Virus record (IMG/VR): IMGVR_UViG_3300031994_000071
Span: 1 to 64,000 of that record
Source: a virus
Lineage: Duplodnaviria; Caudoviricetes
Length of the DNA: 64,000 bases
Strand: one strand, 5' to 3'
Each line of letters opens with the position of its first letter. The first letter of the stretch is position 1. Shown here piece by piece: positions 13,990 to 62,798 of the stretch. Under the pieces are notes generated by a model, which was not told where the DNA came from, did not search any database, and worked only from the letters and a program-made list of their open reading frames with translations. A program made the translations under genes and the position numbers.

Positions 13990-14171
13990 GTAAAGTAAAG
14001 GTTTCCGCCAAATCAGGGAAGCGTGGCACGAAAGTTGCAGAAAGCAAAGTTCGTGTCACGCGCTCTGGTAATGGACGGGGCAAGAGGTTGTTCCAGACCA
14101 CGGCGCAGGTGACGCTCAGGACGTCAACAACGAGAAATGGACAACCGAGACCGAAGAGCAGCGGATCTTAA
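13986..14171 (+). CDS. small basic hypothetical protein
   Basis: ATGA overlap with amidase; Lys/Arg-rich; contains a sigma54 box, so may be partly regulatory. Confidence 0.4.
   Translation: MSKVKVSAKSGKRGTKVAESKVRVTRSGNGRGKRLFQTTAQVTLRTSTTRNGQPRPKSSGS
14024..14038 (+). promoter_or_regulatory. sigma54-type -24/-12 box TGGCAC-GAAAG-TTGC
   Basis: Exact consensus; about 100 nt upstream of the 14137 gene. Confidence 0.55.
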
Positions 14172-14538
14172 ATTCCTTGTAAGCACCCTGCGCCGCGTAA
14201 CGACAGCGGTACAGGTCCTTCCTTTTGTATATTCGGCAATCAGCATCATTATACTCTCGTGCTACAACCTAATCCCGGAGGATGCACAGTATAATATAGA
14301 CATGCTGTTTTATATCTCGCCGGTCACTATTGTCGCATTCCTGTTACTTTCCAAGTTGCTACATCTATGCAAGTGGCATAAAACCGCCTGCATTATACCG
14401 GCCATTCCGCAAGTGGTGAGCCTGGTTGACTATTATATCTACACATTAACGGACCTCGGCGTCAATATCGTGAACATCGTCCTTGTATCCATGACGGTGC
14501 TCCTACTCGTTGCCGCCTACAAAGTATTTTTCAAATGA
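14137..14538 (+). CDS. multi-pass membrane protein
   Basis: About four hydrophobic helices. Confidence 0.75.
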   Translation: MDNRDRRAADLKFLVSTLRRVTTAVQVLPFVYSAISIIILSCYNLIPEDAQYNIDMLFYISPVTIVAFLLLSKLLHLCKWHKTACIIPAIPQVVSLVDYYIYTLTDLGVNIVNIVLVSMTVLLLVAAYKVFFK

Positions 14539-14831
14539 TAAACGAAGAAAATGACATCGTACTGGACGTCCTCGACTTCATCCGGGACCAGTACAAGGAG
14601 GGCAGATGCACGAAGCGCCAGACTGACGTGATTTATGATGCCGCGCTCAACATCGTTGACGCATACGCCACCTCCGACGAACTCGCCAGGCACTTCGGCA
14701 AGACCGTGGAAGCCGTGCATGGCGTCATCAAGCGCAGGATGACCGAAAAGCCCAAGAAGAACATCACCCTTTATTCCTTCCGCGCCTTCCGAAAATGTGT
14801 ACCTAAGGGATGGCTGCATAAGAAACAGTAA
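14535..14831 (+). CDS. small protein with possible HTH
   Basis: ATSDELARHFGKTVEAVHGVIKR resembles a helix-turn-helix; ATGA coupling. Confidence 0.55.
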   Translation: MINEENDIVLDVLDFIRDQYKEGRCTKRQTDVIYDAALNIVDAYATSDELARHFGKTVEAVHGVIKRRMTEKPKKNITLYSFRAFRKCVPKGWLHKKQ

Positions 14832-14924
14832 ATCACCGACATATCTTTATTTCATCCGGCACATTCCGTGTCGGATTTTTGTGCCCAACTTTGCATCGTG
14901 TTTAACCTCTAAAACCAATGCAAA

Positions 14925-15827
14925 ATGGCAGAAGAAAAAACTTATGTCTTTGGTGACGGGAACAACAATGTTCCTCTCGCCTACGCTCTGAACGGCGGCA
15001 ATGGTAACGGCTTCTTCGGCGGAAACGGCGGTGCTTGGGGAGGTGGACTTATCGGCTTCATTCTCGGTATTCTCCTTGGGAATAACGGGAATGGCCTTGG
15101 TGGTATTCTTGGTGGCGGTAACGGCGGCACCCTCGCTGGTGTGACTGGTCGTGAAGCCATCATGAACGCTATCAATGGCACCGATGCCGATGTCCGCTCT
15201 CTGGCGGCCACCATGAATGCCGATGTGAACGAACTCCGTTCCGCTCTCAGCACCATCGCTTCCGGCCTTGCTACCGTCGGCTCCCAGGTTGGCATGTCTG
15301 CCCTCCAGGTTGTCAACGCCATCCAGGCTGGTAACAGCGGCCTCGCCTCTCAACTGGCGCAGTGTTGCTGCGAAAATCGTCTCCTCACTACCCAGCAGGG
15401 TTATGAGGCGCAGATTCGCACCTTGGAGCAGACCAATGCGCTCGGCTCCCAGGCCGACCGGAACACCCGTTCCATCACGGACGCCATCAGCGCCCAGACC
15501 ATCGCCATGAACGACCAGTTCTGCGCACTCAAGAACCGCGAGTACGAGTCCGAGATTGCCCGTCTCAAGACGGAACTCGCCAACTCCGCACGTGCTGCTG
15601 ACAAGGCCGAGATTCTTGGCGGCGTCAACGCTATCGTGGCTCCTCTGGCCGCTCAGGTAGCAGCCATCAAGCAGTCGATGCCTCCGACTGTTGCCGTACC
15701 TTATCCTCAGTTGCAGGCTATTCCGAGTTTCAACACTCTGGAACTGCTCGCCAATCTGAGCATCGTGCGCAACATCTTCGGTGGCAATACGACCGAGACT
15801 CCAACCACAACTCCAGCAACAGCGTAA
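14925..15827 (+). CDS. Gly-rich membrane-associated coiled-coil protein with CCC motif (uncharacterised cassette, gene 1)
   Basis: GNGFFGG...GGLIGFILGILLG, then LAQCCCENRL and coiled coil. Confidence 0.85.
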   Translation: MAEEKTYVFGDGNNNVPLAYALNGGNGNGFFGGNGGAWGGGLIGFILGILLGNNGNGLGGILGGGNGGTLAGVTGREAIMNAINGTDADVRSLAATMNADVNELRSALSTIASGLATVGSQVGMSALQVVNAIQAGNSGLASQLAQCCCENRLLTTQQGYEAQIRTLEQTNALGSQADRNTRSITDAISAQTIAMNDQFCALKNREYESEIARLKTELANSARAADKAEILGGVNAIVAPLAAQVAAIKQSMPPTVAVPYPQLQAIPSFNTLELLANLSIVRNIFGGNTTETPTTTPATA

Positions 15828-15828
15828 T

Positions 15829-16347
15829 ATGTTATCAGGATTGAGACAGGGGGCGCCTATTTATGTCCTCTACAAGAACGAATTGAAGACTGCCATCGGC
15901 GAAGTGGTCGCCGTGAGCAATCCTGTACCGCAGTATGGTACAACCTACAACGCCGGTATTCTGGCCCAGCCAAAGACCGTCGTGGACGTCCGCGTCCGCA
16001 TCGGCTCTGAAACGGTTGACTTCCAGAAGTTACCGGCAGACCAGTCCATCGCTGACTTCGGGCCTAACGGTATCGTAATCAGCGAGACCAGGGACGGTAT
16101 CTTGGCCGAGATTGACGCTTACCAGAAGCGCTCGGAGACCGCCCTGGCCGAGACGCCCAGGCACGAGCAGATTATTGCTGCCTGTAAGAGTATGCGCAGC
16201 GAACTGGACCCGGCCATCCGGAAGGAGGCCGAGCAGACCGCTGAGATAGCAAACCTCAAGAAAGGTATGGCCGACATGCGGGATGACCTTGCAGACATAA
16301 AGGCCCTCCTGTCGAAGTCCCTTAACCGTAAACCAAAGGAGGATTAA
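15829..16347 (+). CDS. cassette gene 2, hypothetical with C-terminal coiled coil
   Basis: Coupled ORF (MLSGLRQGAPIYVLYK...). Confidence 0.8.
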   Translation: MLSGLRQGAPIYVLYKNELKTAIGEVVAVSNPVPQYGTTYNAGILAQPKTVVDVRVRIGSETVDFQKLPADQSIADFGPNGIVISETRDGILAEIDAYQKRSETALAETPRHEQIIAACKSMRSELDPAIRKEAEQTAEIANLKKGMADMRDDLADIKALLSKSLNRKPKED

Positions 16348-16349
16348 CT

Positions 16350-16571
16350 ATGGGTTGGAACATGCTCAAAGAACGCAGCGGAGGTTCGGACGTGTCCGAC
16401 TTCAAGAAGGCTGCCAAGATGGCCAAAAAGGGCCTGGAAATCATGTGCGAAATCGCTGCCGACATGGCCGATGAGTACGATGAGTTCAGCGAACGTGACA
16501 GCGACTGGGATGATGACGAGCCTCACGTGAGGGAACGTCGCCGCCGCAGGAGCAACGGACGCTTCATGTAG
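16350..16571 (+). CDS. cassette gene 3, small charged protein
   Basis: Acidic middle, RERRRRRSNGRFM C-terminus. Confidence 0.75.
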   Translation: MGWNMLKERSGGSDVSDFKKAAKMAKKGLEIMCEIAADMADEYDEFSERDSDWDDDEPHVRERRRRRSNGRFM

Positions 16572-16579
16572 TGGATCGG

Positions 16580-16604
16580 GGGGCGGGGAAACTCGCCCCT
16601 TTTT
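16580..16604 (+). terminator. intrinsic terminator
   Basis: GGGGCGGG-GAAA-CTCGCCCC followed by TTTTT. Confidence 0.8.
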
Positions 16605-16620
16605 AACTTATAAGTTAAGT

Positions 16621-17022
16621 ATGAACAGACTTGATTATTATGACATAACTCCAGCCGGAATGGACGCATATATGTCTAATTACGGTCGGCACTTCTCGAA
16701 GGCGCTCTACGAGTGGGCCGTATCCATGATGAAGGACAGGAACGGCGTTAAAGTTCAGGCAATGTCCAAGCAGGAGGTTGACGAGAAGATGAAAGCGGCA
16801 AGCGTGACCGTTGAGCGCGATATGGGATACGACGTGCCGTACACCTATATGATGGCCAAGGCCGATTATATGGGGTCTTCTATTGCCGACGAGCAACACC
16901 TGGCCAAGTTCGTGAAGGATTACCTTGATGACAAGGACGGCTCTGACACCAGGGCTTTTGACGAGTTCTATGCCAAGACGATAGCGCTCGGCATTCCTAT
17001 CATGTGGGAGGATGTTATTTAG
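16621..17022 (+). CDS. cassette gene 4, hypothetical helical protein
   Basis: ORF with YGRHFSKALYEWAVSMM. Confidence 0.8.
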   Translation: MNRLDYYDITPAGMDAYMSNYGRHFSKALYEWAVSMMKDRNGVKVQAMSKQEVDEKMKAASVTVERDMGYDVPYTYMMAKADYMGSSIADEQHLAKFVKDYLDDKDGSDTRAFDEFYAKTIALGIPIMWEDVI

Positions 17023-17416
17023 GAGGATTGAAATACTCCGGTGGGAGGTGATTTTCCTTTTCGATTACGAGGAGATTAACCGTGGGAGTGTTCTACGGCA
17101 GTTAGTCAACGCCGGTGCTCCCGATTCCGTTCTCCATCGCATCTCCGAGAAAATCGAAGACGGAAATATGGACGAGGGTTTTACCTATCCAAACCCGGAA
17201 CGGCAGATTGCGGTTGTCGGCGTCGGGCACGCATCCTCCGGACCGGAGTTTCTTTCCTCGTTTTGCCACGAATTAAGGCACCTGACAGACGCAATCGCCT
17301 CGGACAAGGGAATTCCCCTCCGAGGCGAGAAAGTGTCTTATTTGACAGGAGAAATATCGCGGAAGGTGGCAGATGCTGTCTGCGTCTTCTCCTGCCCTTA
17401 CTGCCGTCATGAGTAG
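17012..17416 (+). CDS. cassette gene 5, putative zinc metallopeptidase-like protein
   Basis: HExxH motif (CHELRH). Confidence 0.5.
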   Translation: MLFRRIEILRWEVIFLFDYEEINRGSVLRQLVNAGAPDSVLHRISEKIEDGNMDEGFTYPNPERQIAVVGVGHASSGPEFLSSFCHELRHLTDAIASDKGIPLRGEKVSYLTGEISRKVADAVCVFSCPYCRHE

Positions 17417-17625
17417 TCTTCCGGCCCGAGCGCTTCGATGTAGATTCGAGCCGTCGGATAACCGGAGATCATCTGGAAGGCTTCAATGGTCTTCTGCTTC
17501 GGACAGTTCCTTCCTGATTCGATTTTGTAGAGCGCCGTCGGAGTGATTCCGAGCGCCTTGGCCATGGAGCGCTGGGTGATACCCTTGCCCTCCCGGAATT
17601 TCTTGAATACGTTTCCTATGTTCAT
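17407..17625 (-). CDS. XRE-family HTH transcriptional regulator
   Basis: FREGKGITQRSMAKALGITPTALYKIESG. Confidence 0.9.
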   Translation of the reverse strand: MNIGNVFKKFREGKGITQRSMAKALGITPTALYKIESGRNCPKQKTIEAFQMISGYPTARIYIEALGPEDYS

Positions 17626-20133: not shown

Positions 20134-20138
20134 TTTCT

Positions 20139-21206: not shown

Positions 21207-21209
21207 ACT

Positions 21210-22070: not shown

Positions 22071-22071
22071 A

Positions 22072-23737: not shown

Positions 23738-24391
23738 CTACTCTCCTTCCGGCTCCTCTTCCATACCGGGAAGGGTGGCCTCGGTCTGGATGGGCATGAT
23801 GATGGCGGAAGGTCCGGCCTTCTGGTCCTCCTCCATCACAGACTTGATGAAAATCTTCCCGTCCGCCTGGGTAAAGTCCATCTGGACGCTATCCATGTTG
23901 AGCGCCTGGGAAATCTTGTGGAGCAGCGCGGTGTTGATGCCCACCTTGTTGAGCGGCTTCCATCCGTCCTCGGTAGCCAGGAACCCTTCAATCTTCTGCA
24001 CGAATTCCTTGTCGGACCGCTCCAGACGGAAGCGCACCTGTTCGCCCTGGTACACGGCCTTGATGTACACGACCGGCTCGGCCTCCTCCAGGAGGTTGTC
24101 GTAGGCGTCCTCAGTGGTGAGCGTCTTTTCGATGGTCACGACGTCGAAGCCGTAGATGAGTTTGAGGATCTTCGCGTGGACGCAGAAGCCGTTGAGTGAA
24201 GCAATCTGTTCGTCATCGAACGGAGTGCAGTAAGTAAGGGGCACCCTGATAATGATGTGCCTGTCGGTTGCGTAGGCATTACCGTGCTCGAAATACACGC
24301 GCTCAGTGTTGCCGTCCGTCGAGGATTCAGCCTTCTCGCAAGCGGCGAAAAGTTTGTAATCCTTTTTGAAGTTAATCCTTTCTTTTGCCAT
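23738..24391 (-). CDS. sliding-clamp (DnaN)-like fold protein
   Basis: YATDRHIII, VGINTALL and AIIMPI motifs resemble beta-clamp domains. Confidence 0.5.
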   Translation of the reverse strand: MAKERINFKKDYKLFAACEKAESSTDGNTERVYFEHGNAYATDRHIIIRVPLTYCTPFDDEQIASLNGFCVHAKILKLIYGFDVVTIEKTLTTEDAYDNLLEEAEPVVYIKAVYQGEQVRFRLERSDKEFVQKIEGFLATEDGWKPLNKVGINTALLHKISQALNMDSVQMDFTQADGKIFIKSVMEEDQKAGPSAIIMPIQTEATLPGMEEEPEGE

Positions 24392-25067
24392 AGATATTGG
24401 GATTTAATTGTTTGATAATATCCACCTCTTCTTTGTGCCGTTTTAAGGCCGCATGAACGCGGCTGTCCTTGTGGATGGTGTATTCCACCAAAACCTTCGG
24501 GATATTGAAAATCTGGCCGTTTTCCGCGCCTTCCAGGAGGCGAATCCAGAATTCCCAGTCCTCGTACAACGTCCCTTCCCTGTAACCGCCCACCCGGAAC
24601 CAGTCGGAACGACGGAAACAGCATGTGTTCGTGAGGGAGTTCCGTTTCAGCAGGGATTCGTACCCGTGCCAGGTGTGCGCCACGATCTTGTCAATTCCCT
24701 CACCCTTCCTGTGATCCTGCGGGACGGCCAGCCTCAGGCCGGGGATGTGAGAGAACGCCATGGCAAACTCATACAGGGCATCCGGGTAAAGCCAGTCATC
24801 CGCATCGAGCGGAACAATCAGCCCGTCACCGGCCCTGTCAATCGCAAGATTCCTGGCAGCAGCCACACCATGATTATCGGTCCTGATGCCGGTGCATCGA
24901 GGATCCGTACCCAGTGCGCGTTCAATAGCGGACCAGGAGCCGTCCGTGGAGCCATCGTCAACAACAATGAGCCGCCAGTTGCGGAATGTCTGCATCTGGA
25001 CGGATCGGATGGCCATAGCCACATATTCTTCTGCATTATAGCAGGGTATAATCACCGATATGAGCAT
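24372..25067 (-). CDS. family 2 glycosyltransferase (GT-A fold)
   Basis: ISVIIPCYNAEEY, VVDDGSTDGS, GVAAARN, LDADD, EDWEFW. Confidence 0.95.
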   Translation of the reverse strand: MLISVIIPCYNAEEYVAMAIRSVQMQTFRNWRLIVVDDGSTDGSWSAIERALGTDPRCTGIRTDNHGVAAARNLAIDRAGDGLIVPLDADDWLYPDALYEFAMAFSHIPGLRLAVPQDHRKGEGIDKIVAHTWHGYESLLKRNSLTNTCCFRRSDWFRVGGYREGTLYEDWEFWIRLLEGAENGQIFNIPKVLVEYTIHKDSRVHAALKRHKEEVDIIKQLNPNIYGKRKD

Positions 25068-25082: not shown

Positions 25083-26758
25083 TTATGATGTTCCTGCAAG
25101 TTTCATGCCAGACTTGCTTATTTCGTTTTTAACATACTCACACATGTCGAAGAAATTATTGTATGCCTTGCGGGCCTTCCTGTCCCAGTACCACCTGGTA
25201 AGGAACGTAGCCTTGACTGCCCTTGTGGCATACTTCATGACGGTATTTGCAGAGGACATAACGGCCTCCTTCATTGCCAACTGAAATATGTGCTCAAACA
25301 TGCCGCTGATTTCCTCCGTGCTCTCTAAGCACTTGGCGAAAGCGTCAGCAAGTTCCTGGGCCATCTTCTCGTCCAGGGGCTTGATTTCGCTGCTCAAACT
25401 CGATTCTTGCATTATTGAAAATCTCCTTTTCTATTTCTTTCATCGCCTCTTTGTATTCAGGCGTATTCATTATTTCTTCAAGTGAGGCCTTTTCAACCCA
25501 TTCCACCTTGCACCCTTCCGGAAGCCTCATTATACGCCCTGGTGTCGCCAGGCCATTCTGCAAGGTCGCAAGATCAACCGGCCCCTTAATGATCAGCGTC
25601 GGGTGGATTGCTCTTTCAAGCGCCTTTTGGTAAGCATCGAGCGGACCCGCCAGAGCATTTGCTATGCTCACCAACTCGTCGTGGAATGTATTTAGGAAAG
25701 ACCCCTTAATCTCGTCCGGACTCTGTAAATCCTCGTACATCCAGTTCACATTCTCCGAAACGAAATTGTACAGTTTTTCCTTATCCCACATTTCCTCAAG
25801 GCGGCGCAGAAACATTTTGTTTGACTCACTCATGACGCATCCTCTCCTTAAGGTGGCCGATACGGCGCTTGTGCCATGCTATCTCAGCCTCGTAGATGCT
25901 GTTCCAGCACTCCTTGCTCGCGTCGTAGCGATAGTATTCTGCATCAGCAAGATGCTTGTTGTAGAACTTCGGCATCCCATCATACTTCTCATCCATGAAG
26001 ATGGAATACTCAGAGTTGTGCGGATGCTCGCAGACAAACTCAATGATGTCCGCATTGCCGGTGAACGTGTTAATCGTCCAGATCTTGTCACCAGGCTTCA
26101 ACTGCTTAATTTCTGTAATACGTTCCATGGTTAAAATGGTGATTTTTGCCCAAGCGAGTACGCCTGGAAGTATAACTTCTGCTGCTCGGTCAGGTTTTGG
26201 AACCACTGATCGAACAGGTGCTGATATTTCGGAGCCACGTTGTAACGCCACTCTTTTTGCAGATACTCTTTCATAGAATCCAATCCAAAATTGCGTGGAT
26301 AAGCATGAAGGGGAGCATAAGTATAAGGATTGGCAACATAATCGGCCAGAAAGCACCGGCGATGGTACACATGTCCGTCTCCTCGTCAAGGACAACGCCA
26401 TAAAGGATGCCAGTGACTATGGCTATGAATATGTAGCCAATCACAATGAGAACTATCCAATACCAGGCCATAACGATCAGTTTTGAAGTTGCGTCGCTGC
26501 AAGAATTATGCCATTGGCAAGGTCCTTCGCGGTGTCCACGTCCTCTTTGCAGATATGGCCGAGCGCGTTGATGAGGTCGTGGCGGATAGCCTCGGCCCCG
26601 GAATCCTCCATCACCCAGGATATGCCAACGCCATCCTTGTTGTGGATGAACATCATTCCCTTGTAGCCGTGCTCAGTGAGCCATGTTACCATTTCGTTCA
26701 ATTTTGCGGTGTCTTCCGCTGACGGAGAGAAGCCGTCCTGGTGTTTCATCTGTTCCAT
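25083..26758 (-). other. array of small hypothetical ORFs (25083-25412, 25345-25833, 25826-26128, 26131-26370, 26271-26471 membrane, 26477-26758)
   Basis: Co-oriented tightly packed ORFs. Confidence 0.7.
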
Positions 26759-34688: not shown

Positions 34689-34991
34689 CTATCCCTCCAC
34701 ACTGACGAGGTTGGCAACTGCGAACTGGCGCCACCACTGGGCCTCGATGTCGAAGTAATCGACCTTGGTCAGGTCCTCCGGCTTAGGGTCTCCCTTGGGC
34801 GTCCACAGGCTCCCGTCCTTGAGTTTCATAAGGTCACGGCGGAGGGTGCCCACGGCCTCACGAACCGTCCCGTCCTTCTTCTTGAAGGAGAACTTAACGG
34901 CCCGCTTGAGCATTTCTTCCTTGAGGGTGATAACATTCTCGGCTTCCTTTTCCGTCAGGCCGAGGCTGACAAGTTTAACTTTCTGTTCCAT
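34689..34991 (-). CDS. SH3/WYL-like beta-barrel protein (DUF2693-like)
   Basis: VKFSFKKKDGTVREAVGTL...YFDIEAQWWRQF. Confidence 0.65.
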   Translation of the reverse strand: MEQKVKLVSLGLTEKEAENVITLKEEMLKRAVKFSFKKKDGTVREAVGTLRRDLMKLKDGSLWTPKGDPKPEDLTKVDYFDIEAQWWRQFAVANLVSVEG

Positions 34992-35025
34992 GATTTTGTA
35001 AGTTTGTGTGTGTGATTGTATTATT

Positions 35026-35040
35026 GCAAATATCGTGCCA
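35026..35040 (-). promoter_or_regulatory. sigma54-type box TGGCAC-GATAT-TTGC
   Basis: Exact consensus, 35 nt from the ATG at 34991. Confidence 0.7.
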
Positions 35041-36958: not shown

Positions 36959-37723
36959 TTAAAGTGTTACAGATTCATATCTATCTTCAATCAGGACCGG
37001 CATGAGAATGCACTGGCCCTTGTCGCCCTGCACGAGCGCTGCATGGCGCCCGTCCTCGTGAAGGTAAACCTCCGTCGCGCCGATGAAGTCCATAGCCTCG
37101 ATGAACCTGGCGAACCACTCGGCCTTGAACCCACAAGGACCGACCTTGCACAGCCAGTTGGGACTCCACTTGATACCCTTGCCGGTCTCAGCCTTGTATG
37201 CCGTCCGCTTTTCGTCAACCCACGAGTAGAACTTCTCGCGGTCGAACTTGTAAGGACGATAACCGCCTGCGCTCACATTGGGAATCACGGACTCCCACTT
37301 GGGATAGATGGGATGGTTGTGGCCTTCCTTGTCAACCCATGACGTCCGGTGCTGTATGGTCACACTCTTATTGTTTTCGGCATCCCAAACGGTCTCCTGT
37401 GACTCCACGTAACTGCCGTCCTTGAGCAGCACGGCACCCTCATACTCTGCCGGATAGTCCTCCTTGATGGCAATCAGGATGTGAGCATCGGATGCAACCT
37501 TGTTTCCTCGGTCGTGGAAGACTCCGTTCATTGCAGGACGAATCTCATCGTTGGCCACGTAGTTGTAGATATTGAACTTGCCAACCTTGGCCGGTGTCAT
37601 AGCCTCGGCGCGGATGACCTGCTGAATCATCTCAGCGGCCTGCTCATTACTGATTCTTGCATTCTCCGGGTCGCGGAGGGCGTTGTAAACCTCGGAAAGT
37701 TTGTTGATGCTTGTCTGTTTCAT
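36959..37723 (-). CDS. second sliding-clamp (DnaN)-like protein
   Basis: RPAMNGVF...VASDAHIL...YPKWESVIP...ILMPV. Confidence 0.55.
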   Translation of the reverse strand: MKQTSINKLSEVYNALRDPENARISNEQAAEMIQQVIRAEAMTPAKVGKFNIYNYVANDEIRPAMNGVFHDRGNKVASDAHILIAIKEDYPAEYEGAVLLKDGSYVESQETVWDAENNKSVTIQHRTSWVDKEGHNHPIYPKWESVIPNVSAGGYRPYKFDREKFYSWVDEKRTAYKAETGKGIKWSPNWLCKVGPCGFKAEWFARFIEAMDFIGATEVYLHEDGRHAALVQGDKGQCILMPVLIEDRYESVTL

Positions 37724-37753
37724 ATTCTTGTAAGTTTTTGTTGTTATGCTACT

Positions 37754-37768
37754 GCAATTATTGTGCCA
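37754..37768 (-). promoter_or_regulatory. sigma54-type box TGGCAC-AATAA-TTGC
   Basis: Exact consensus, 31 nt from the ATG at 37723. Confidence 0.7.
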
Positions 37769-42800: not shown

Positions 42801-43441
42801 CACCTGCCTGATGGTCGTTGCAGTCATGCCCAGGCCCTCCCGTTCTTGTGGTTCATCCGTTTCTGCCGTTTGTCCCTCCGCCTCATCCGTCCGTCAATCT
42901 CGTTCAAAAGCCGTTCTTCCTCGTCGGCCCACTGAACGCGTGCCATCCGGTCACTCGCCCAGTCAAATTGTGTGTAAGTTTTGCTCATGATTGTACATAT
43001 TTGCTACCGCCCCGGGCCGGGTATAGTTACCCAGCCCAGAGCACGCACTAAGCCTAAAGCCTTTTTATCCTCGCTTAGTCGAGTTTACTTGCTATTGATA
43101 GCCTTCCAATGGGCAGCGCTCGCCCGGCGGAGGTAGTCAAGCACGCGCCCGGGGGTCCATGTGTCCCATGCACGGAATTCCTTTTCGCCCGTTTCGGCGT
43201 TCTTGACCATGCGACCTAATACGCCGTTCTGGCAGTAGTTCGAGCCGTCAAGCCACTGCACGAGGTACGCGGGCGTTACGTCCTTGAACGTAAGGCCATC
43301 TTTGCGGGCTACCTTTTGCAGTTCGGATTTGCCCCAATTCTCGCGGAGCGTGCGCATGCAGGAAGACAAACTTTTGTGCTCGGCGTTGATAAAAGCCTTG
43401 AAATCCTTAACAGAAGCGGAGGTAAACTGAATCTTTGCCAT
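39871..43441 (-). other. first genes of the leftward arm (39871-40185, 40182-40703, 40672-41010, 41012-41539, 41551-41766, 41947-42228, 42232-42420, 42448-42642, 42639-42827, 43085-43441)
   Basis: Co-oriented small ORFs. Confidence 0.72.
41771..41935 (-). CDS. 54-aa highly acidic peptide
   Basis: Hand translation MAHDIDDDTYFGGGMPDDYKYDGDEEPEEYEDDYTEDDFLEAESNQAETLYFNS; fills the gap between neighbours. Confidence 0.65.
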   Translation of the reverse strand: MAHDIDDDTYFGGGMPDDYKYDGDEEPEEYEDDYTEDDFLEAESNQAETLYFNS

Positions 43442-44017
43442 AATTGTAAATGTTTAATTGTTAATTGTTTATAGTTACTAAATTATTTGATTTGTTCAGC
43501 CGTTCGGAGTCGAACCAAACCACTGAATTTGAAGCCGTTCACGCCTAATTGCTTTGCACACTTGAAGCCGTTCAAATGCTGCTGCGAAACCCACTTTTAG
43601 ACGTCGTAAGCCGTTCATTTTACCGCTTTTTCCGGCCCCCGTGAGCGTGTCACTCGCTCACCGCTGCACCAAATGCACCCCCGGGGCCGTTCAGGCGTTG
43701 TTTTTGCGCGGTCGCTCTCCCCGCGTTCGCCCTCCCGGGCTTATTGTAAGCCGTTTTTGTCGGTCCGTGGTGCACTGACTTCCCAAATTTTGAGAAAGTG
43801 CCTAAAGGCATTCGCCCATAGCAAAAGAGCATTTCGCTCGCCCCGTTCGGGTACACTTCGCCTCAAAACCAGGTATCACCCTTTCCGTTCGGCTCGTTCC
43901 AGACTTTTCAAAGACCTATTTTTGGCGTCCTCAGATAACGCCCCCCCCTGAATGGGGGCTATATGTGGGGGAGAATCCCCCCGGGGGCCTCTCTTGCCCG
44001 CCGTCACTGCTATAAAT

Positions 44018-44032
44018 GCAAACGGCGTGCCA
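44018..44032 (-). promoter_or_regulatory. leftward sigma54-type box TGGCAC-GCCGT-TTGC
   Basis: Exact consensus in the non-coding control region. Confidence 0.7.
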
Positions 44033-44118
44033 CAAACGGCACAATATGCCAAAAATAGCGCAAATCTTACACTTTGAAAGAAAAATCTAACATATAATTA
44101 CATATTATAACTAAAATC

Positions 44119-44131
44119 TAACATATTGATT
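44119..44131 (-). promoter_or_regulatory. IHF-consensus site (AATCAA-TATG-TTA)
   Basis: Exact WATCAANNNNTTR on the minus strand. Confidence 0.5.
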
Positions 44132-44166
44132 ATAATTTGTAAGTTTGGCACACCCATTTACTAACA

Positions 44167-44219
44167 CTGACAAAATGGCAGGAACCTGACAATATGGCAG
44201 AAAACTGACAAAATGGCAG
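44167..44219 (+). repeat. three direct repeats CTGACAA(A/T)ATGGCAG, 19-bp period
   Basis: 44167-44181, 44186-44200, 44205-44219; each an imperfect palindrome. Confidence 0.9.
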
Positions 44220-44258
44220 CACTTCTTAAAAAATTTTAAGAACTCGCAACTATTTGAT

Positions 44259-44336
44259 AATCAAGCACTTACAAAGGGCGTAAAAAAGTTACTACGACCG
44301 TCGCAGATACATAACTAATTGATTTTCAAGGGGTTA
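44259..44336 (+). promoter_or_regulatory. two IHF-consensus-like sites (44259-44271 exact; 44324-44336 one mismatch)
   Basis: AATCAA-GCAC-TTA and TTTCAA-GGGG-TTA within the repeat AACTAnTTGATnnTCAAGnnnTTAC; third copy at 44676-44688. Confidence 0.5.
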
Positions 44337-44410
44337 CGGGGGTTTTGAGGCAAAAAAGGGGCGCACCCACATGGGACTATCGTTTATTTTTTTTATTTTT
44401 TTTCTGAGCC

Positions 44411-44425
44411 TGGCACGCTTTTTGC
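44411..44425 (+). promoter_or_regulatory. rightward sigma54-type box TGGCAC-GCTTT-TTGC
   Basis: Exact consensus preceded by T-tracts. Confidence 0.7.
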
Positions 44426-44782
44426 ATTATAAGGCCCCTAGCTGTACCAAAACAGGCACGGATGAATGTTTTTTCTTGGGTTGTATAGAACTACACCACC
44501 CCACCCGACCTTTATCTATTTATTTATCATATACTTGACCCGCTCAATGAAGAAATGTAGTATTATACAAGTTAGGAAATAGGTGCTTATCTGGAGAGGG
44601 GGTAAATGTGTGAATTCTGGGGTATATATAGGGAAATTTTTTACATTTTTTCATCGGGCCTATTCCGCCCTTGATTATCAGCGACTTACGGAATGTAGTT
44701 TTATACCGAATAGGAAACTTTTTGTCATTTTCGTGCCGTTTTCGGTACGTTTTCGGAATCTGCCGCTTGGAATCGTCCAGAA

Positions 44783-45181
44783 TTGGCCCTAAATTTGCAG
44801 GCGGAAAAACGCAAAATTAGGCGCATGGCAAAACAGGTAATTGTGGCCCCAGGTCACGTCTTTGAGAATCTGGAGGAAGCAGCAGCCTTCCTCAACGTCA
44901 CTCCCGGAACTGTTTCGAGGGCGATCCGCGATGTCCGTCCAATCAGCGGAGTCCCGCTCAGGTATGCGCAACGCGTGTACGTGGTGAAGATGAAGAAGCA
45001 GGAGGAATGGGTGGCAGCAGTTATGGACAGCAGCAACAGGCGATACGTGACGGTCGGCCAGTCCCTCAGGAAGATTCCGAAAAAGGATGTGGCCCAGGTG
45101 AAGGACATCACCGCCTCCTGGTACTTCAACTCTGGCACGGAACTTGCAGGGAGGGACGATTCAAAACGAAGTGAATTATGA
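44783..45181 (+). CDS. NUMOD1/HTH-like DNA-binding protein
   Basis: FENLEEAAAFLNVTPGTVSRAIR. Confidence 0.55.
   Translation: MALNLQAEKRKIRRMAKQVIVAPGHVFENLEEAAAFLNVTPGTVSRAIRDVRPISGVPLRYAQRVYVVKMKKQEEWVAAVMDSSNRRYVTVGQSLRKIPKKDVAQVKDITASWYFNSGTELAGRDDSKRSEL
45133..45147 (+). promoter_or_regulatory. sigma54-type box TGGCAC-GGAAC-TTGC
   Basis: Exact consensus, 31 nt from the ATG at 45178. Confidence 0.65.
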
Positions 45182-45768
45182 CGTACCTATTTTTCGACAC
45201 AGAGACAACAGGGCTTCCGAAGAACTACTCGGCGCCCACTACCGACCTCGACAACTGGGGTGCCGCACGACTGGTGCAACTCGGATACATCCTGGAGGAT
45301 GACAAGCAGGGAGTGATATCAAAGGGAAACCTCATCGTCAGGCCGGAAGGATTCGTGATCCCGGAGGCGGCGAGCAACGTGCATGGCATCACGACCGAGG
45401 TGGCCACCGAGAAGGGACTTCCGGCAAAGAAGGTCGTGTACGCCTTCCTCGGACAGGCACGGATTGCCGATGTCCTGGTCGGACACAATGTTGACTACGA
45501 TACTCATGTGGTAGGCTCCGAACTGGTGCGCCACTGGGGAAAGGACTATATCGAGGGGATGCCGGTCGTTGATACCATGAAGTCCAGCGTGGATTTCTGC
45601 AAGATCCCCTCGGCCCGTGGGTACAAGTGGCCCAAACTGATTGAACTCCACAACAAACTCTTCGGGTGCGACTTCGAGGATGCCCATGATGCCATGGCCG
45701 ACATCAGCGCCACCCGGAAGTGCTTCTGGGAGTTGGTGAGACTGGGTATTATCAAGTTAAACCGTTAA
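45178..45768 (+). CDS. DEDDh 3'-5' exonuclease (DnaQ-like)
   Basis: FFDTETTG, GHNVDYD, AHDAMAD. Confidence 0.93.
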   Translation: MTYLFFDTETTGLPKNYSAPTTDLDNWGAARLVQLGYILEDDKQGVISKGNLIVRPEGFVIPEAASNVHGITTEVATEKGLPAKKVVYAFLGQARIADVLVGHNVDYDTHVVGSELVRHWGKDYIEGMPVVDTMKSSVDFCKIPSARGYKWPKLIELHNKLFGCDFEDAHDAMADISATRKCFWELVRLGIIKLNR

Positions 45769-49068: not shown

Positions 49069-49083
49069 TGGCACGCTTTTTGA
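49069..49083 (+). promoter_or_regulatory. sigma54-like box variant TGGCAC-GCTTT-TTGA
   Basis: Same first 14 nt as 44411 and 59319; 28 nt from the ATG at 49111. Confidence 0.5.
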
Positions 49084-49110
49084 AAGACATTCTGTAAATT
49101 TTTAACAAAT

Positions 49111-49365
49111 ATGGAGACTAAGTACAACGTTTGCGACAAAGTGTCGTATTTCAACGATGCCTCTCAGAAGGTTGAGACCAGCACCGTGCAGGGCATCAAG
49201 ATTATCGCCACCAAGGTCCACGCCAATCAGGATGGCGTCGATGTGTGCGATGAGCAGATTGCCATCTACACCCTCAAGAACGGCATCAACACGCCCGAGA
49301 ATACCCTGTTCCCGAGTGAAGCGGCGTGCGTAGAGCACTACAAGGCGCTGTTCGCGTCTATGTAA
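49111..49365 (+). CDS. hypothetical protein
   Basis: KYNVCDKV start; precedes tRNA cluster. Confidence 0.75.
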   Translation: METKYNVCDKVSYFNDASQKVETSTVQGIKIIATKVHANQDGVDVCDEQIAIYTLKNGINTPENTLFPSEAACVEHYKALFASM

Positions 49366-52497: not shown

Positions 52498-52992
52498 ATG
52501 AAAAAGATTTGGTCAAAAATTCAAATGTTCTGGTTCTTCCATTTCGCAAACCCGGTTGTTTGGATGGGAGAAAACGTCGGCTTCAAGTACACCTTCAGTA
52601 AGTTCTGGCTGGACATTTCCACGAAATCCGGCAACTGGAAGATGCGTGTGATGGCCGATGAGCACCCATACGCGTACCTGCTTGCTGGAGTGCAGCAGGG
52701 AAACGAAAAAAACGTTTTCGGCTTCGCCGAAACGTTGTACATGCAGGTCTTCACCCTCACCCGTGATCAGGGCCTCGTGAACGACGTCCAGAAGGCCATC
52801 AAGAAGTACCAGGCCCGGCTCGTTAAGTCGAATCCGGCTTCGCCGGACGAGGAGCGGGAGGCTCTTGAGGAAGTAAAGGCCGTCCAGGAATACGTGGACG
52901 CAACGCCGAAGGAGCGCAGGAAGATGGAGCGCGGCATCAATCGCCGCTTCAAAAAGGCCGTTAAGGCACAGAATTTGCAGGAGACAAAGTAA
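52498..52992 (+). CDS. hypothetical protein
   Basis: ORF in replication operon. Confidence 0.75.
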   Translation: MKKIWSKIQMFWFFHFANPVVWMGENVGFKYTFSKFWLDISTKSGNWKMRVMADEHPYAYLLAGVQQGNEKNVFGFAETLYMQVFTLTRDQGLVNDVQKAIKKYQARLVKSNPASPDEEREALEEVKAVQEYVDATPKERRKMERGINRRFKKAVKAQNLQETK

Positions 52993-53004: not shown

Positions 53005-53613
53005 ATGGAAGAAGGAATTTATTACAAGAGAGGCTCCAAGTCAGATTTCGCTGGCGTGGAGATTCTTGGGGACGCAATGGTAATCCCCAGGGCGATTATC
53101 GAAGAGATTGCTTTCCATGAGAACTTGAAGGTCCAGGGAAAGAACGAACGTGAGCGCTGGACGTGCAAACTCCAGGGCATCGACAAGCCCATGCTGCTCA
53201 ATGCCACGAACCGTAAGAGGCTTGCAAAGCGCTTCTGGGATACTCCCGTGGCGGACGGCACTCCGTGCCATGGCCGTCTGAATCTGCTGAGCGGCCTCGG
53301 CCTGGCTATCCGTCTGGATTCCGAGCCTTGCCGCGATCCGAGTGACGGTGAAATGACTGTCGGTCTTCGTGTGTCGAAGTTCGACCCGGACCCCGCTCCC
53401 GCTGCACCGGCCCCTGCGGCCAAGAAGGTCATCACCGAGGAGGTGATTGAGAAGACCGTGAAGTGGGCCAAGGAGAAGGGCCTTACCTTTGAACAGGTGG
53501 CCGAGAAGTTCGATTTCGCCAACGAGACCGTAAAGGATGCCGTGCAGGATGCCATGACTCCCGAACCCCAGGCGCCTGCCGAGGAAAAGAAAGAGGACGA
53601 TTTACCCGTATAA
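53005..53613 (+). CDS. putative ssDNA-binding/annealing partner of the exonuclease
   Basis: KPMLLNATN motif, acidic DDLPV tail, adjacent to YqaJ-like gene. Confidence 0.5.
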   Translation: MEEGIYYKRGSKSDFAGVEILGDAMVIPRAIIEEIAFHENLKVQGKNERERWTCKLQGIDKPMLLNATNRKRLAKRFWDTPVADGTPCHGRLNLLSGLGLAIRLDSEPCRDPSDGEMTVGLRVSKFDPDPAPAAPAPAAKKVITEEVIEKTVKWAKEKGLTFEQVAEKFDFANETVKDAVQDAMTPEPQAPAEEKKEDDLPV

Positions 53614-57559: not shown

Positions 57560-57560
57560 T

Positions 57561-58294: not shown

Positions 58295-58309
58295 TATCTT
58301 TGTCGCACT

Positions 58310-58936: not shown

Positions 58937-59279
58937 AGTAACAGGGCGAATTACCCAAGTCCTCCCGCTTGAACGGGGAACGAGTCAGCGTGGAGAATGG
59001 CTCTCCGCAAAAGTTGTAATCGAGTATGAGTCTGGGCGCTATAACAGCACTTTGTGCCTTGAGTGCCGCAACAACCGTGCCGAGGAATTCTCGAAACTCC
59101 GCGCTGGTCAGAAGGGTACCTTCTACTACGATGTGACGAGCCGTGAATACAACGGAAAGTGGTATCACAACGTGAACTGCTTCGACTGGAAGATTGAGGG
59201 CGCTGCCGCTCCTGCACCTGCTCCCGCTCCGGCGCCTGGCAACAACGGTGCCGCATCCACTGACGGCGATCCGTTCTAA
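58926..59279 (+). CDS. DUF3127-like OB-fold ssDNA-binding protein
   Basis: GRITQVLPLERG...SREYNGKWY...DGDPF. Confidence 0.8.
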   Translation: MKNEVTGRITQVLPLERGTSQRGEWLSAKVVIEYESGRYNSTLCLECRNNRAEEFSKLRAGQKGTFYYDVTSREYNGKWYHNVNCFDWKIEGAAAPAPAPAPAPGNNGAASTDGDPF

Positions 59280-59298
59280 ACGTTCTAAAACCTTGCTT

Positions 59299-59333
59299 GC
59301 GTGTCATTCTTTTTGGAATGGCACGCTTTTTGC
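59299..59333 (+). terminator. intrinsic terminator whose 3' arm is a sigma54 box (59319-59333)
   Basis: GCGTGTCATTC-TTTTTG-GAATGGCACGC then TTTTT; contains TGGCAC-GCTTT-TTGC. Confidence 0.65.
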
Positions 59334-59379
59334 TTATATTTGTATCGGATTTTCTAAAATGGTTATAGAATTAGGAATG

Positions 59380-59409
59380 AAAAAGGGCCGCTGTGAAGCG
59401 CCCCTTTTT
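59380..59409. terminator. bidirectional intrinsic terminator
   Basis: AAAAAGGGCCGCT-GTGA-AGCGCCCCTTTTT between convergent units. Confidence 0.8.
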
Positions 59410-59411
59410 CT

Positions 59412-60998
59412 TTACTCCTGGATTGTCCGTCCAGCGCTGCTGTTGCTGACTCCCGGTTTACTTGGGTTGGTCTCCTCACCGGATGTCCCGGTATCAACTC
59501 CATATTGTGCCTTGACCTTCGCGGGAATCTCGGACTTGATTTGCAGTTCATATTCCCACTCTTCCTTGATCTTGCCGTAGTCACCGACATGCTGGGAGCC
59601 GAGGTCTTCCATAGCGGCCTCGCGGGATTTGATGCGGGCGTACACCTGGTCGCATTCATTCTTGACCTGCTCGGCGACATTCTGCGGCATCCAGATGTTC
59701 GGCCCGACGGAAACGCGGAGTTTCGCGTAACGGTCGGGATTTCCTTCCTCAACACCCACCAATGCTATGATGACATTGATAAGGTCGCGGACACCCTTAA
59801 AGAACTGGGGCCATACGTTCTGGCACCACTGAATCTCCGGAGCGAACATAATCTTGATGGTCGTGCTGGAGTCTGCGCCCTGCTTGAGCACGTCCGGCTC
59901 CACGAATACAGACATGCAGGTACGGACGATGTTGTTCCAGAGGTTTTCCAGGTGGATGGTCGCAACGTTGCTGGCATCCGGCGGGTCCAGGAACTTCGCA
60001 TCGCTATGGGCGAGCGCGTCTGCGCTGCCCTTCACGCCGATGGTCTTGCCGTTCATTTCGGAAGGCGGCAGACTTACCAGTTTCTCGGTCTTGAGGAACA
60101 GGATCGGGAAGGCGGTGTTCTTCATTTCCTCGGACATGTAGGAACAGGCATCCTCCAGGGCCTCGATGGAGAGTTGGGCCGGGCCGGTAGGAATATCGTC
60201 AACGCGGAAATAGATGCACTGAACGCGCCGCCCGGCCTGGTTGGCTACCTTCTTCACGAGGACGTAATCATCCTCGCTTTTGGTGCGGCCTTCCTTCGGG
60301 ATGATGGAATCGTCATCATCGTCGAGGACCATCCACGTTTCCATGCCGTCCGGCGTGAAGATGTCAACGGCTGCGTGGTTGTCGAACGTGTACTTCCTGG
60401 CCACGATGGTTTTTCCGTTGATGTCGGTCTTCGGGTAGAGTACGGAACCCTCCTCGTATCCGAATACCTGGTAATCAATGCCGTTCTCGTCACGGTACAC
60501 ATAGATGGCGCCGTCTCCTGTGCGGAATACCGAGCGGACGAGTTGGATCCAAGCGGCCTTGTTGATACCGGACATGTCAAGCCAGGATATTACCTTGTCA
60601 AAAGCCTCCTTATCCTCGGTCTCATTGGCAATCCAGAATCCGTCACCGGCGAAGTGGGAGATCTTCTTTCCGATGATGCACTCCTGGATGCCGAGGGCAA
60701 CCGTCTCGACGTCATCATATCCGACGAGTTCCCATTTGGTCCTTCCCTTGGAATCCTTGATGCCGGTGTCCTTGAAGATAGGGCGCTTGGACATGTACTT
60801 GGAGTTTATGTCGTGGGCGCTTGGAGTGATCTCATTAAGGAAGTCCTCCTGCCGCAGAGTGATAAATGTACCGGCTGGCGGTACCACTGTGCGGCGCTTG
60901 TTCCTTCCTTTCTGATTCTGCTCCAAGACGGGTGCCCCGACAAGGCGGCGAGTCCACAACCGCTTTTTCGAGTCGTTAATGTAATCAGAAATTCGCAT
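59412..60998 (-). CDS. portal protein
   Basis: 528 aa helical protein directly downstream of the large terminase. Confidence 0.7.
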   Translation of the reverse strand: MRISDYINDSKKRLWTRRLVGAPVLEQNQKGRNKRRTVVPPAGTFITLRQEDFLNEITPSAHDINSKYMSKRPIFKDTGIKDSKGRTKWELVGYDDVETVALGIQECIIGKKISHFAGDGFWIANETEDKEAFDKVISWLDMSGINKAAWIQLVRSVFRTGDGAIYVYRDENGIDYQVFGYEEGSVLYPKTDINGKTIVARKYTFDNHAAVDIFTPDGMETWMVLDDDDDSIIPKEGRTKSEDDYVLVKKVANQAGRRVQCIYFRVDDIPTGPAQLSIEALEDACSYMSEEMKNTAFPILFLKTEKLVSLPPSEMNGKTIGVKGSADALAHSDAKFLDPPDASNVATIHLENLWNNIVRTCMSVFVEPDVLKQGADSSTTIKIMFAPEIQWCQNVWPQFFKGVRDLINVIIALVGVEEGNPDRYAKLRVSVGPNIWMPQNVAEQVKNECDQVYARIKSREAAMEDLGSQHVGDYGKIKEEWEYELQIKSEIPAKVKAQYGVDTGTSGEETNPSKPGVSNSSAGRTIQE

Positions 60999-61010
60999 AG
61001 CCTATGTAAA

Positions 61011-62753
61011 TTAAATCCAAACGACGGAGCGTCCTCCGCCATAATCTTGAAATAGTCCTGAGTACGCCGAATCGTCAATTTCCTTTTCCGGCTGCTTCTT
61101 CGGCCTCGCGTCAAGTTCAAAGACTGCGCGATAAGTGAACGGGTCCATGAGGCCGGGGGATTCGTGGAACCTGGCGATATACTCGTCCTTGCTCCGGTAG
61201 AGGATCTTCTTGTTTTTCTGCCCCTTGATGAACACGTTTTTCTCGTTGTAGAGAATATCTATGATGCGGCGCTTGCCGCCCTTTTTTCCATAGGGAATCT
61301 GCATATTGAGGTCCAGGGTCGTGCAGAAGAATCCGGTCTTGAACAGGACCTCGGTTTTCGCAAGGAGTTGCGAGCGCAGGTTGAAGTATTGTTCGATGGT
61401 GACAGGGTTTCCCTGCTCATCGTATTCCTGCATCGGCGTTTTGTTCGGAGTGATTGGAATGCCCTCCTTGAATGCGGTGAGGTAGTATCCGATGCCGGTG
61501 GCATCAAACGCAAAGTTCTGTCTCGGCACGCCCCAGTGGTCCAATTTTTGGTCAATCCAGTCGAGCAGTTGCTTCGGGTCCCCACGGAATGCCTCAACGC
61601 CTACCCAGCAGTTGCCCTGGAAGATGAGCATGAGGTTATCATCGCTCTTGAGTTTACCGCCAGACACGTCCATGGTGGCGTACATGTTCTCATCGCTATT
61701 TCTCGGGTTGGTCTCCATGGCCCGGAAGTCTGCGTCCGCGACGCCAACGGACTCATCGTCGGTCGGCCCGAAATAAGCCTCAGCAAGGACGGCACGCTGA
61801 GCGGCGCCTACGTTGTGAAGGTTCGCCACGGATTGTCCCCTGGTTGCGGCCACAAGTTTTCTGTTGCCTGCGGCGGAGCCGGTGAACAGGACGAAGGATT
61901 TCACCATGTCGGCCTCGGTCAGTCCTGCTGCGCGGTCATCGTCGCTGATTCTGATGTGGGCGGCCTCAACCACTTCCTCCTTGGAATCTCCCCAGACAAC
62001 CGCCGTCGGATCATCACCCTTGATATAGAAGTAGCGCTTTTTGCCATCCATTTCCGGGATGATGTACCAGGTCTTCGGGTTGATGTATCCGCCGGTGATG
62101 AGGAACTGGGTTGTCCAGTGTCCGTATTTCGGGTTGAAGGACAGTACCATGCAAGGCTCTACGCCTGACGCATCACGGTTACGCGAGAACATGTATGCGA
62201 ACATCCTGAACTGCTCGATGGCCGTGGCCTCGTCGATTCCGATGTAAGCGGCCTGCTGCTTTTTGATGTACTCCTGGAACTCGTCCCACTCCTTCGGATT
62301 CTCCGGATTAAAGTTCGCGTGAATCATCTGGATAGCGTTGTTCCAGATTGGCCATGCGAACGTAGGTAGTTCTCCGGTTGTTGTTTCGCAATGTGAGAAT
62401 TCGCCCCAGACGAATGAGGCGTCACGGTGCATGGACGTACCCTTGGCGGAGTCCAACTTACGCACGTTGATGAGACGCCCGGTGTATCCATACTTACCGA
62501 CACCGTTTAATCCCTTGAGCATCATGCCGAACGTCTTCCCGGAAGTTGCCTGTCCGCAAATAAATATAAGATTCGCCTCGCACTTGCACAGGTTTTCCTG
62601 GAGGCCCTCCTGCGGGATGAGGTCGATTCCGTCCCTCAGCACGAAATCTCCCACTTTGTCCCATCCCTTATCTTTGACTGTGGCTATTTTCCGCTCGACG
62701 TGTTCGTATCGCTCGGGAAATGCTATATCGGTATGGATCAGTTTGAACATCAC
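61011..62753 (-). CDS. terL: terminase large subunit
   Basis: Walker A GQATSGKT, Walker B IGIDEAT, nuclease ATMDVSG, FDATGIG. Confidence 0.92.
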   Translation of the reverse strand: MMFKLIHTDIAFPERYEHVERKIATVKDKGWDKVGDFVLRDGIDLIPQEGLQENLCKCEANLIFICGQATSGKTFGMMLKGLNGVGKYGYTGRLINVRKLDSAKGTSMHRDASFVWGEFSHCETTTGELPTFAWPIWNNAIQMIHANFNPENPKEWDEFQEYIKKQQAAYIGIDEATAIEQFRMFAYMFSRNRDASGVEPCMVLSFNPKYGHWTTQFLITGGYINPKTWYIIPEMDGKKRYFYIKGDDPTAVVWGDSKEEVVEAAHIRISDDDRAAGLTEADMVKSFVLFTGSAAGNRKLVAATRGQSVANLHNVGAAQRAVLAEAYFGPTDDESVGVADADFRAMETNPRNSDENMYATMDVSGGKLKSDDNLMLIFQGNCWVGVEAFRGDPKQLLDWIDQKLDHWGVPRQNFAFDATGIGYYLTAFKEGIPITPNKTPMQEYDEQGNPVTIEQYFNLRSQLLAKTEVLFKTGFFCTTLDLNMQIPYGKKGGKRRIIDILYNEKNVFIKGQKNKKILYRSKDEYIARFHESPGLMDPFTYRAVFELDARPKKQPEKEIDDSAYSGLFQDYGGGRSVVWI

Positions 62754-62755
62754 CG

Positions 62756-62798
62756 CAAAGATACGAAAAAGGGGCGATTATTTGCAAAATGTGTGCCG
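62756..62798 (-). promoter_or_regulatory. terminase promoter: sigmaA (-7 TATCTTTG, -33 TTTG) overlapping a sigma54-like CGGCAC-ACATT-TTGC
   Basis: -7 at 62756-62763, -33 at 62785-62788, sigma54-like box at 62784-62798. Confidence 0.55.

Follow-up and report, generated by a model that had tools for sequence, protein, structure and literature searches.

Textbook phages are transcribed by the main sigma factor of the host, by sigma factors of their own or by their own polymerases. The sigma-54 (RpoN) promoters of bacteria such as glnAp2, nifH and pspA have a GG-N10-GC core, require an AAA+ activator with sites ~100-200 bp upstream, make use of bent DNA and show very low basal activity. Late transcription of phage T4 relies on gp55 and gp33 and on a motif of its own (TATAAATA), the gp45 sliding clamp serving as mobile enhancer. 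In this study, we describe a set of sigma-54-type promoter boxes and three palindromes forming a candidate enhancer in a gut phage of the Caudoviricetes (IMG/VR record IMGVR_UViG_3300031994_000071). The window, i.e., the whole stretch of DNA that was analysed, is the first 64 kb of this 75,221-bp record, which has a GC content of 52% and is rated 100% complete by CheckV, with no terminal repeat.

The phage shares with glnAp2, nifH and pspA the promoter core, and at a central pair of divergent boxes it has palindromes that may correspond to their upstream activator sites. These classical enhancer-dependent systems (reviewed in PMC4987338) are cellular regulons with the cognate activator gene nearby, whereas in the phage an activator gene is lacking, and so is a visible activator site at most boxes. 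Like the late genes of T4, the genes behind the boxes would form a phage transcription class that needs an activation step past promoter binding. T4, however, supplies its own sigma-like proteins and motif, whereas this phage appears to borrow the intact sigma-54 system of its host. Predicted sigma-54 promoters have been reported for chaperone and protease genes of Bacteroidota (PMC12316311), and the promoters of groES, grpE-dnaJ, dnaK, lon and clpB carry the same -24/-12 box as the phage, including the G or A after TGGCAC. Compared with these host promoters, the phage elements reside on a virus without sigma-54 or an activator, and its three tandem palindromes lie between two divergent promoters.

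A full-text literature search found no published phage described as using host sigma-54 promoters. It returned just one published item connecting a phage with sigma-54, namely gp2 of Pectobacterium phage Q19, a putative sigma-54-like protein (HHpred probability 94%, E 0.67; PMC7693777). The prediction for gp2 is weak, was made at the protein level and comes without a description of promoters; the present phage has promoters but lacks a protein of this kind. Benler et al. (2021), writing on Quimby-like phages, make no mention of sigma factors or promoters. What is new here is a candidate enhancer palindrome common to phage and host chaperone genes, and an ordinary promoter class in what appears to be an undescribed viral role. 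A sequence-only reading of the window had already proposed sigma-54 promoters, and this proposal is backed by the enrichment of the boxes, their orientation, start-codon distance, conservation and invariant positions, and by the boxes of host groES, lon and clpB. We consider it likely that the boxes are host sigma-54 promoters and that the central pair is served by an enhancer captured from the chaperone regulon.

Number, placement and conservation of the boxes

The 16-nt pattern TGGCAC-N5-TTGCW was counted in the phage and in 100 dinucleotide-preserving shuffles, and reversed patterns were used as a further control. Seven exact sites are present in the window (shuffle mean 0.09, maximum 1) and none in the remaining 11 kb of the phage, while matches with one mismatch number 20 (4.6 expected from the shuffles). 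Chance or base composition as the origin of the boxes is ruled out by the shuffles and the reversed-pattern controls. The seven sites are those of the sequence-only reading; its plus-strand coordinates agree with ours, and its minus-strand coordinates are 1 nt too high, the last base (W) of the pattern having been left out. The exact boxes and the near boxes in a promoter-like position are as follows:

14024..14039, plus strand: exact box within a small basic open reading frame (ORF; 13914-14171), just upstream of small-protein genes (14137-14831)
35025..35040, minus strand: exact box before the ATG of a WYL_2 (Sm-like SH3) gene, 34689-34991
37753..37768, minus strand: exact box before the ATG of a 254-aa gene, 36959-37723
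44017..44032, minus strand: exact box TGGCACGCCGTTTGCA; ~565-nt leader leading into the long minus-strand arm, which begins with a 118-aa gene (43085-43441) followed by a Pistol ribozyme
44411..44426, plus strand: exact box TGGCACGCTTTTTGCA; ~370-nt leader, then the replication arm (helix-turn-helix [HTH] gene, exonuclease onward)
45133..45148, plus strand: exact box before the ATG of an RNase_T/DnaQ-like exonuclease gene, 45178-45768
59319..59334, plus strand: exact box downstream of the replication arm, where convergent genes leave a gap; it is enclosed by a sigmaA-type promoter (TTTG-19-TAtaTTTG) and overlaps a hairpin
25095..25110, minus strand: near box TGGCATGAAACTTGCA (TGGCAT), 27 nt before a GT2 glycosyltransferase gene, 24372-25067
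26498..26513, minus strand: near box TGGCATAATTCTTGCA (TGGCAT), 26 nt before a 66-aa hydrophobic ORF
44784..44799, plus strand: near box TGGCCCTAAATTTGCA (TGGCCC), 25 nt before the HTH gene, 44825-45181
49069..49084, plus strand: near box TGGCACGCTTTTTGAA, before an 84-aa gene (49111-49365) that is followed by three tRNA genes
52964..52979, plus strand: near box AGGCACAGAATTTGCA (AGGCAC), 25 nt before a gene at 53005-53613
62783..62798, minus strand: near box CGGCACACATTTTGCA, whose TTTG is the -33 element of the sigmaA promoter of a 579-aa gene

All seven exact sites run in the same direction as the local genes of the gene map, as had been claimed. The distance between box end and ATG had been given as 28-35 nt for five sites; the measured gaps of 33 (35025), 29 (37753), 29 (45133), 26 (49069) and 32 nt (62783) are close to this range, with one just below it. 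To these the one-mismatch matches add four promoter-like sites (52964, 25095, 26498 and 44784) at 25-27 nt before an ATG. Under the usual sigma-54 geometry, with the C of GC at -12, the gaps found would give leaders of ~14-26 nt. Placement was scored by whether an ATG-led ORF (minimum 45 codons) begins 20-40 nt downstream of the box. Of the 22 sites in the whole genome with one mismatch or none, 13 are positioned in this way, compared with a background of 14% (exact sites, p = 0.01; near sites, p = 5e-5), and their box-to-ATG gaps are 24-36 nt. The three near matches named in the sequence-only reading (47652 and 49069, both TTGA, and 62784, CGGCAC) are all among the one-mismatch sites. Site 47652 was not upheld as a promoter box; it stops 2 nt short of an ATG and is not conserved in the relatives, and is thus probably a chance match.

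Conservation in homologous promoters had been named as a check on the proposal. Site alignments were made in an IMG/VR clade consisting of G001 (76.6 kb, ~78% DNA identity), G003 (98% identical), G004 (54 kb), G006 and G002 (~69%, the most diverged), and homologous boxes persist in all five while the flanks diverge. G001 alone contains 5 exact boxes, with none for the reversed pattern. The 14024 box is the same at 16/16 nt in G001 and G004, where the surrounding region is 69% identical; the 37753 box is kept in G001 next to unalignable upstream sequence; and the 45133 box is kept in G001 and, despite diverged flanks, in G002. The 59319 box is kept in G001, G003, G004 and G006, the 44411 box is identical in G001, and the 52964 near box is identical in G003, G004 and G001 with different flanks. 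Other homologues have changed. In G001 the 44017 box reads TGGCACGGGTTGTGCA (weakened), the 35025 box is degenerate (TGGCATGGAAATTGTA) and the 62783 near box reads TGGCACGTAATTTGTA, and the 49069 near box reads TGGCACAGTATTTGTG in both G001 and G004. G002 has additional boxes of its own, 24-36 nt before ATGs.

Within the pattern, the GG and GC doublets lie exactly 10 bp apart, as in -24/-12 promoters. Among 30 clade sites, GG, C-23, T-14 and G-13 are each present in 30/30, T-15 in 29/30 and C-12 in 26/30. The base after TGGCAC is G in 20/30 of these sites, and likewise in 20/27 host groES boxes. Such per-position conservation is the profile of sigma-54 promoters. Could the likeness to sigma-54 be superficial, with the boxes read by a phage DNA-binding protein or by a sigma-like factor of the phage that has escaped recognition? 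The phage has many small genes without known function, an HTH gene (44825-45181) adjoins the control region, and the box can also be read as a direct repeat, TKGCA-N6-TKGCA. All 11 consensus positions, the spacing and the G after TGGCAC nevertheless agree with sigma-54, and no sigma-54 DNA-binding domain was found in the phage. Bacteria have the same box before groES, lon and clpB, where it must be recognised by a factor of the host, and a phage-encoded reader is accordingly very unlikely. The sigma-54 domain PF04552, the activator domain PF00158 and the GAFTGA motif were not found in the six-frame translated phage genome. An activator or sigma-54 encoded by the phage was thus rejected as a candidate, as searches with PF00158, PF04552, GAFTGA and Walker A gave no plausible gene.

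Disguised promoters of the main sigma factor were also considered as an origin of the boxes, and a sigmaA explanation of all boxes had been named as a refutation of the proposal. By the Bacteroidota sigmaA criterion (a -33 TTTG with TAnnTTTG, the -7 element, 17-23 nt downstream), the phage genome has five full matches (0.8 expected), and four good promoters of the TTTG/TAnnTTTG type. Among the exact boxes, only 59319 lies inside a sigmaA promoter. The other six have no -7 element, and since no TAnnTTTG lies downstream the disguise is rejected for most boxes. The coincidence of the near box at 62783 with a sigmaA promoter, suspected from the start, holds (TTTG-21-TAtcTTTG).

In 121 Bacteroidales genomes of about 3.7 Mb we counted ~308 exact boxes, or ~2.5 per genome, with roughly half as many for the reversed control. 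With 7 in 75 kb, the density of boxes in the phage is therefore >100 times that of the bacteria. Such a density would suit silent docking sites, either a sponge draining scarce host sigma-54 (and lowering the stress response) or roadblocks and insulators. Silent sites would also fit the lack of a phage activator gene, the many sites without an enhancer and the location of the 14024 box inside a gene. At 59319 and 62783, the main polymerase would face competition from a closed complex on the sigmaA promoters. A sponge, however, gives no reason for co-orientation as strict as that seen or for a constant 25-33 nt to start codons, and the central pair has an enhancer-like element common to host genes. 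We regard silent docking as unlikely overall, although such a role may apply at 59319 and 62783.

Two box-rich Bacteroidales genomes, G065 (2.0 Mb) and G053 (2.7 Mb), have 15 and 13 exact boxes, many of the TGGCACG type and on many contigs. These lineages may have an enlarged sigma-54 regulon. A prophage cluster as the source of the boxes in G053, G065 and G050 was rejected, as the sites are dispersed.

The central control region and host chaperone promoters

The gene layout of the phage was derived from an ORF map together with Pfam and PHROG scans:

up to ~17 kb, plus strand: virion genes and diversity-generating retroelement genes (ORF map, Pfam/PHROG)
17.0-43.4 kb, minus strand: long arm of mostly small genes without known function (ORF map)
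43,442-44,824: 1.4-kb gene-free, AT-rich control region (ORF map, sequence)
44040..44140: AT-rich DNA in which AAAATCTAACATAT is repeated, separating the leftward box from the palindromes (sequence reading)
44167..44219: three imperfect 15-bp palindromes CTGACAAWATGGCAG with a 19-bp period, between boxes 44017(-) and 44411(+); candidate enhancer (upstream activating sequence)
44.8-59.3 kb, plus strand: replication arm with an HTH protein, RNase_T exonuclease, HNH, Dam, dUTPase and three tRNAs; further genes are a D5-type primase-helicase, a YqaJ-like nuclease and an SF2 helicase
after the replication arm, minus strand: portal gene and 579-aa gene, with more virion genes beyond

The individual palindromes are, in order, CTGACAAAATGGCAG, CTGACAATATGGCAG and CTGACAAAATGGCAG, and 134 nt separate the array from the leftward box, 191 nt from the rightward one. 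In the phage, the palindrome pattern occurs solely at 44167-44219 (3 copies, 0.18 expected), and the array of three is kept in G001. The control region of G002 (L003:4060-4210) has CTGATTTTTAGGCAG-like repeats 58-65 nt apart instead of the three palindromes, and these may reflect a different host regulator. A match to WATCAANNNNTTR was spotted by eye at ~44122-44134, within the AT-rich stretch at 44040-44140, which may be bendable DNA or an IHF/HU-type site.

The phage portal is 30% identical to those of the Parabacteroides phages PF672P1/P2, 24% identical to that of Bacteroides LoVEphage and 37% identical to prophage portals in two metagenome-assembled genomes of Bacteroidales (G020 and G021). 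Megablast and tblastn searches against a phage collection found no annotated relative nearer than the 30%-identical portal. A Shine-Dalgarno-like motif precedes only 24 of the 123 phage genes (background 12.6%), and the leaders are 38% A. The portal relatives, the few Shine-Dalgarno-like motifs with A-rich leaders and the four good TTTG/TAnnTTTG promoters together point to one of the Bacteroidales as the host.

G020 and G021 have one rpoN each and both match PF00158. Two bacterial enhancer-binding proteins (bEBPs) were confirmed in G020. One is a 417-aa AAA+/HTH_8 protein without an N-terminal sensory domain, in which it resembles PspF of the psp system, and the other is a REC-AAA-HTH response regulator adjoining a hybrid kinase. 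The two boxes of G020 that lie in a genuine intergenic promoter context precede lon and clpB.

A host-side test was made with G020 and 40 further genomes of its family (groES regions L091 and L127-L155; lon, L156-L185; grpE, L186-L215). A groES box, TGGCAC(G/A)-N4-(A/G/T)TGC, is present in 27/30 genomes at 58-126 nt before the ATG, and a lon box, TGGCA(C/T)-N5-TTTGC(A/T), in 23/30. In 16/30 genomes, the groES box is preceded at 10-45 nt by a palindrome TGNCA-W3-TGNCA (strict pattern, chance rate ~0.001 per region), commonly TGACAAAATGTCA or TGACAAAATGGCA. The palindrome is also upstream of grpE in 19/30. In 8 genomes, a sigma-54-like grpE box, TGGCAA-N5-TTTG(C/T), was found as well, mostly with 90-145 nt between it and the palindrome upstream. 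The palindrome is absent from all 30 lon regions. In one groES region (L139), the exact 15-mer of the phage lies 12 nt upstream of a box that is one position off the phage TGGCACGCTTTTTGCA. These occurrences make TGNCA-W3-TGNCA a candidate enhancer of an uncharacterised Bacteroidales chaperone regulon.

The sigma-54 promoters of the family fall into two classes, groES/grpE with the palindrome and lon with a full TTTGC and no palindrome. The lon/clpB class, with its full TTGC and no palindrome, is like the internal boxes of the phage, and the groES/grpE class has the TGNCA-W3-TGNCA palindrome that the phage has in three copies. The phage differs from both in combining the palindrome with a full TTGC, whereas the -12 element of host groES boxes is mostly ATGC or GTGC.

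The boxes could be sigma-54 promoters while the palindromes are something else, namely a repressor operator in common with host chaperone genes or the iterons of the phage replication origin, with activation left to another bEBP, e.g., one of the two-component NtrC type. G020 does encode a REC-AAA-HTH bEBP next to a hybrid kinase, the 1.4-kb gene-free AT-rich region could be an origin, and the groES spacing of 10-45 nt is close for an enhancer. The grpE spacing of 90-145 nt, on the other hand, is classic for an enhancer, three tandem dimer sites would suit the assembly of a hexameric activator, and sigma-54 promoters need an activator site while no other conserved element was seen. This division of roles appears rather improbable, and we favour the palindromes as the activator site of the central pair.

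A possible route of control by the host

We further propose, tentatively and at somewhat less than even odds, that both non-structural arms are placed under the sigma-54 chaperone circuit of the host, forming a stress-gated, repressor-free switch with no described phage counterpart. By the reading considered likely above, host holoenzyme with sigma-54 would dock on the boxes as a closed complex, the phage contributing DNA alone, and a host bEBP would open this complex through ATP hydrolysis. Assembly of the activator at the central pair would take place on the three palindromes, as three putative dimer sites fit a hexamer, and both divergent promoters would be reached by looping. About ten internal boxes without an enhancer, 25-33 nt before start codons, would restart or boost transcription along both arms. 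T at -17 to -14 in a nifH promoter, as in Rhizobium and Klebsiella, leads to tight binding of the holoenzyme and easier activation without a nearby enhancer. With their full TTGC, as at host lon and clpB, the internal boxes may bind holoenzyme similarly tightly and be opened by activator from solution.

The acting bEBP would most likely be the driver of the chaperone and protein-quality-control regulon. Both arms would then stay silent until this activator is active, either in stressed cells or through unfolded protein resulting from the infection itself. Phage expression would follow the activity of the host bEBP because sigma-54 promoters remain closed until AAA+ ATP hydrolysis. Since such promoters are fully off without their ATP-driven activator, a phage based on sigma-54 would tie its development to a host signal.

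Several observations weigh against the reading of the boxes as host sigma-54 promoters with a captured enhancer. No common enhancer was found upstream of the internal boxes, ~10 of 12 boxes have no recognisable one, and the palindromes could be operator or iterons as discussed above. The conservation of the 14024 box, which lies within coding sequence, may be partly explained by protein constraint, and overlapping sigmaA-type promoters could explain transcription at 59319 and 62783. The boxes are absent in more distant relatives (portal 37% identical or exonuclease <=65% identical), in PF672P1 and in LoVEphage; since they are missing beyond about the genus level, the trait belongs to a narrow lineage. 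The evidence on candidate hosts comes from genomes with only distantly related prophages. Across the order Bacteroidales, the exact palindrome 13-mer is only ~1.6 times as frequent as its control (~161 vs ~99, with the control counted by hand), and 27 of 30 sampled loci are not near chaperone genes. This weak order-wide signal limits the enhancer link to one family.

If the proposal is true, the host signal would most likely be protein-folding stress in Bacteroidales that abound in the gut. The palindrome also supplies a candidate enhancer for a chaperone regulon that has been little studied, that of one Bacteroidales family, and twelve short putative promoters and one putative 53-bp enhancer form a compact test set. 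Tight, orthogonal promoter-enhancer parts for Bacteroidales would be useful as tools.

Features of individual boxes and adjoining genes

Most gene labels attached to the boxes in the sequence-only reading were confirmed: the WYL_2/SH3-like gene at 34689-34991, the RNase_T-type exonuclease at 45178-45768 and the 84-aa gene with the tRNA cluster. The label "clamp-like" for the gene at 36959-37723 was not borne out, as no Pfam, PHROG or PDB hit was obtained and a single-sequence AlphaFold model had a predicted local distance difference test (pLDDT) score of 44. The leaders of this gene and of the WYL_2 gene (37723-37752 and 34991-35024, minus strand) share AAACTTACAA(A/G)AAT right before the ATG, and both leaders recur almost unchanged in G001. 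The shared sequence may act in translation or as an RNA signal common to the two genes.

Next to the 14024 box, an inverted partner with one mismatch (TGACACGAACTTTGC) lies at 14043-14058, and the two form an imperfect inverted repeat which is kept in G001 and G004. The gene preceding this region (13198-13989) looks like an amidase-type endolysin judging by its translation, and ORF 14137-14538 has a sub-threshold DUF4418 match, a faint membrane-protein match. A tyrosine integrase was not found in the phage, only a small resolvase-type recombinase.

A Pistol self-cleaving ribozyme (RF02679; Rfam, 56.6 bits; gathering 34.5) is located at 43002-43084 on the minus strand, immediately downstream of the gene that opens the leftward operon. 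A transcript from the 44017 box would be cleaved there. In the ~565-nt leftward leader (43500-43900), about six copies of AGCCGTTCA (plus strand) occur amid GC-rich hairpins.

The hairpin at the 59319 box (59299-59326) has 12 bp, and its 3′ arm is the -24 element of the box. A strong bidirectional terminator is located ~60 nt downstream of the box, which would delimit one further feature:

59345..59412, plus strand: predicted short transcript of ~65 nt (fold -28.3 kcal/mol, z -3.3), ending at the bidirectional terminator between the convergent operons

Because of this terminator, an RNA of ~65 nt may be made here.

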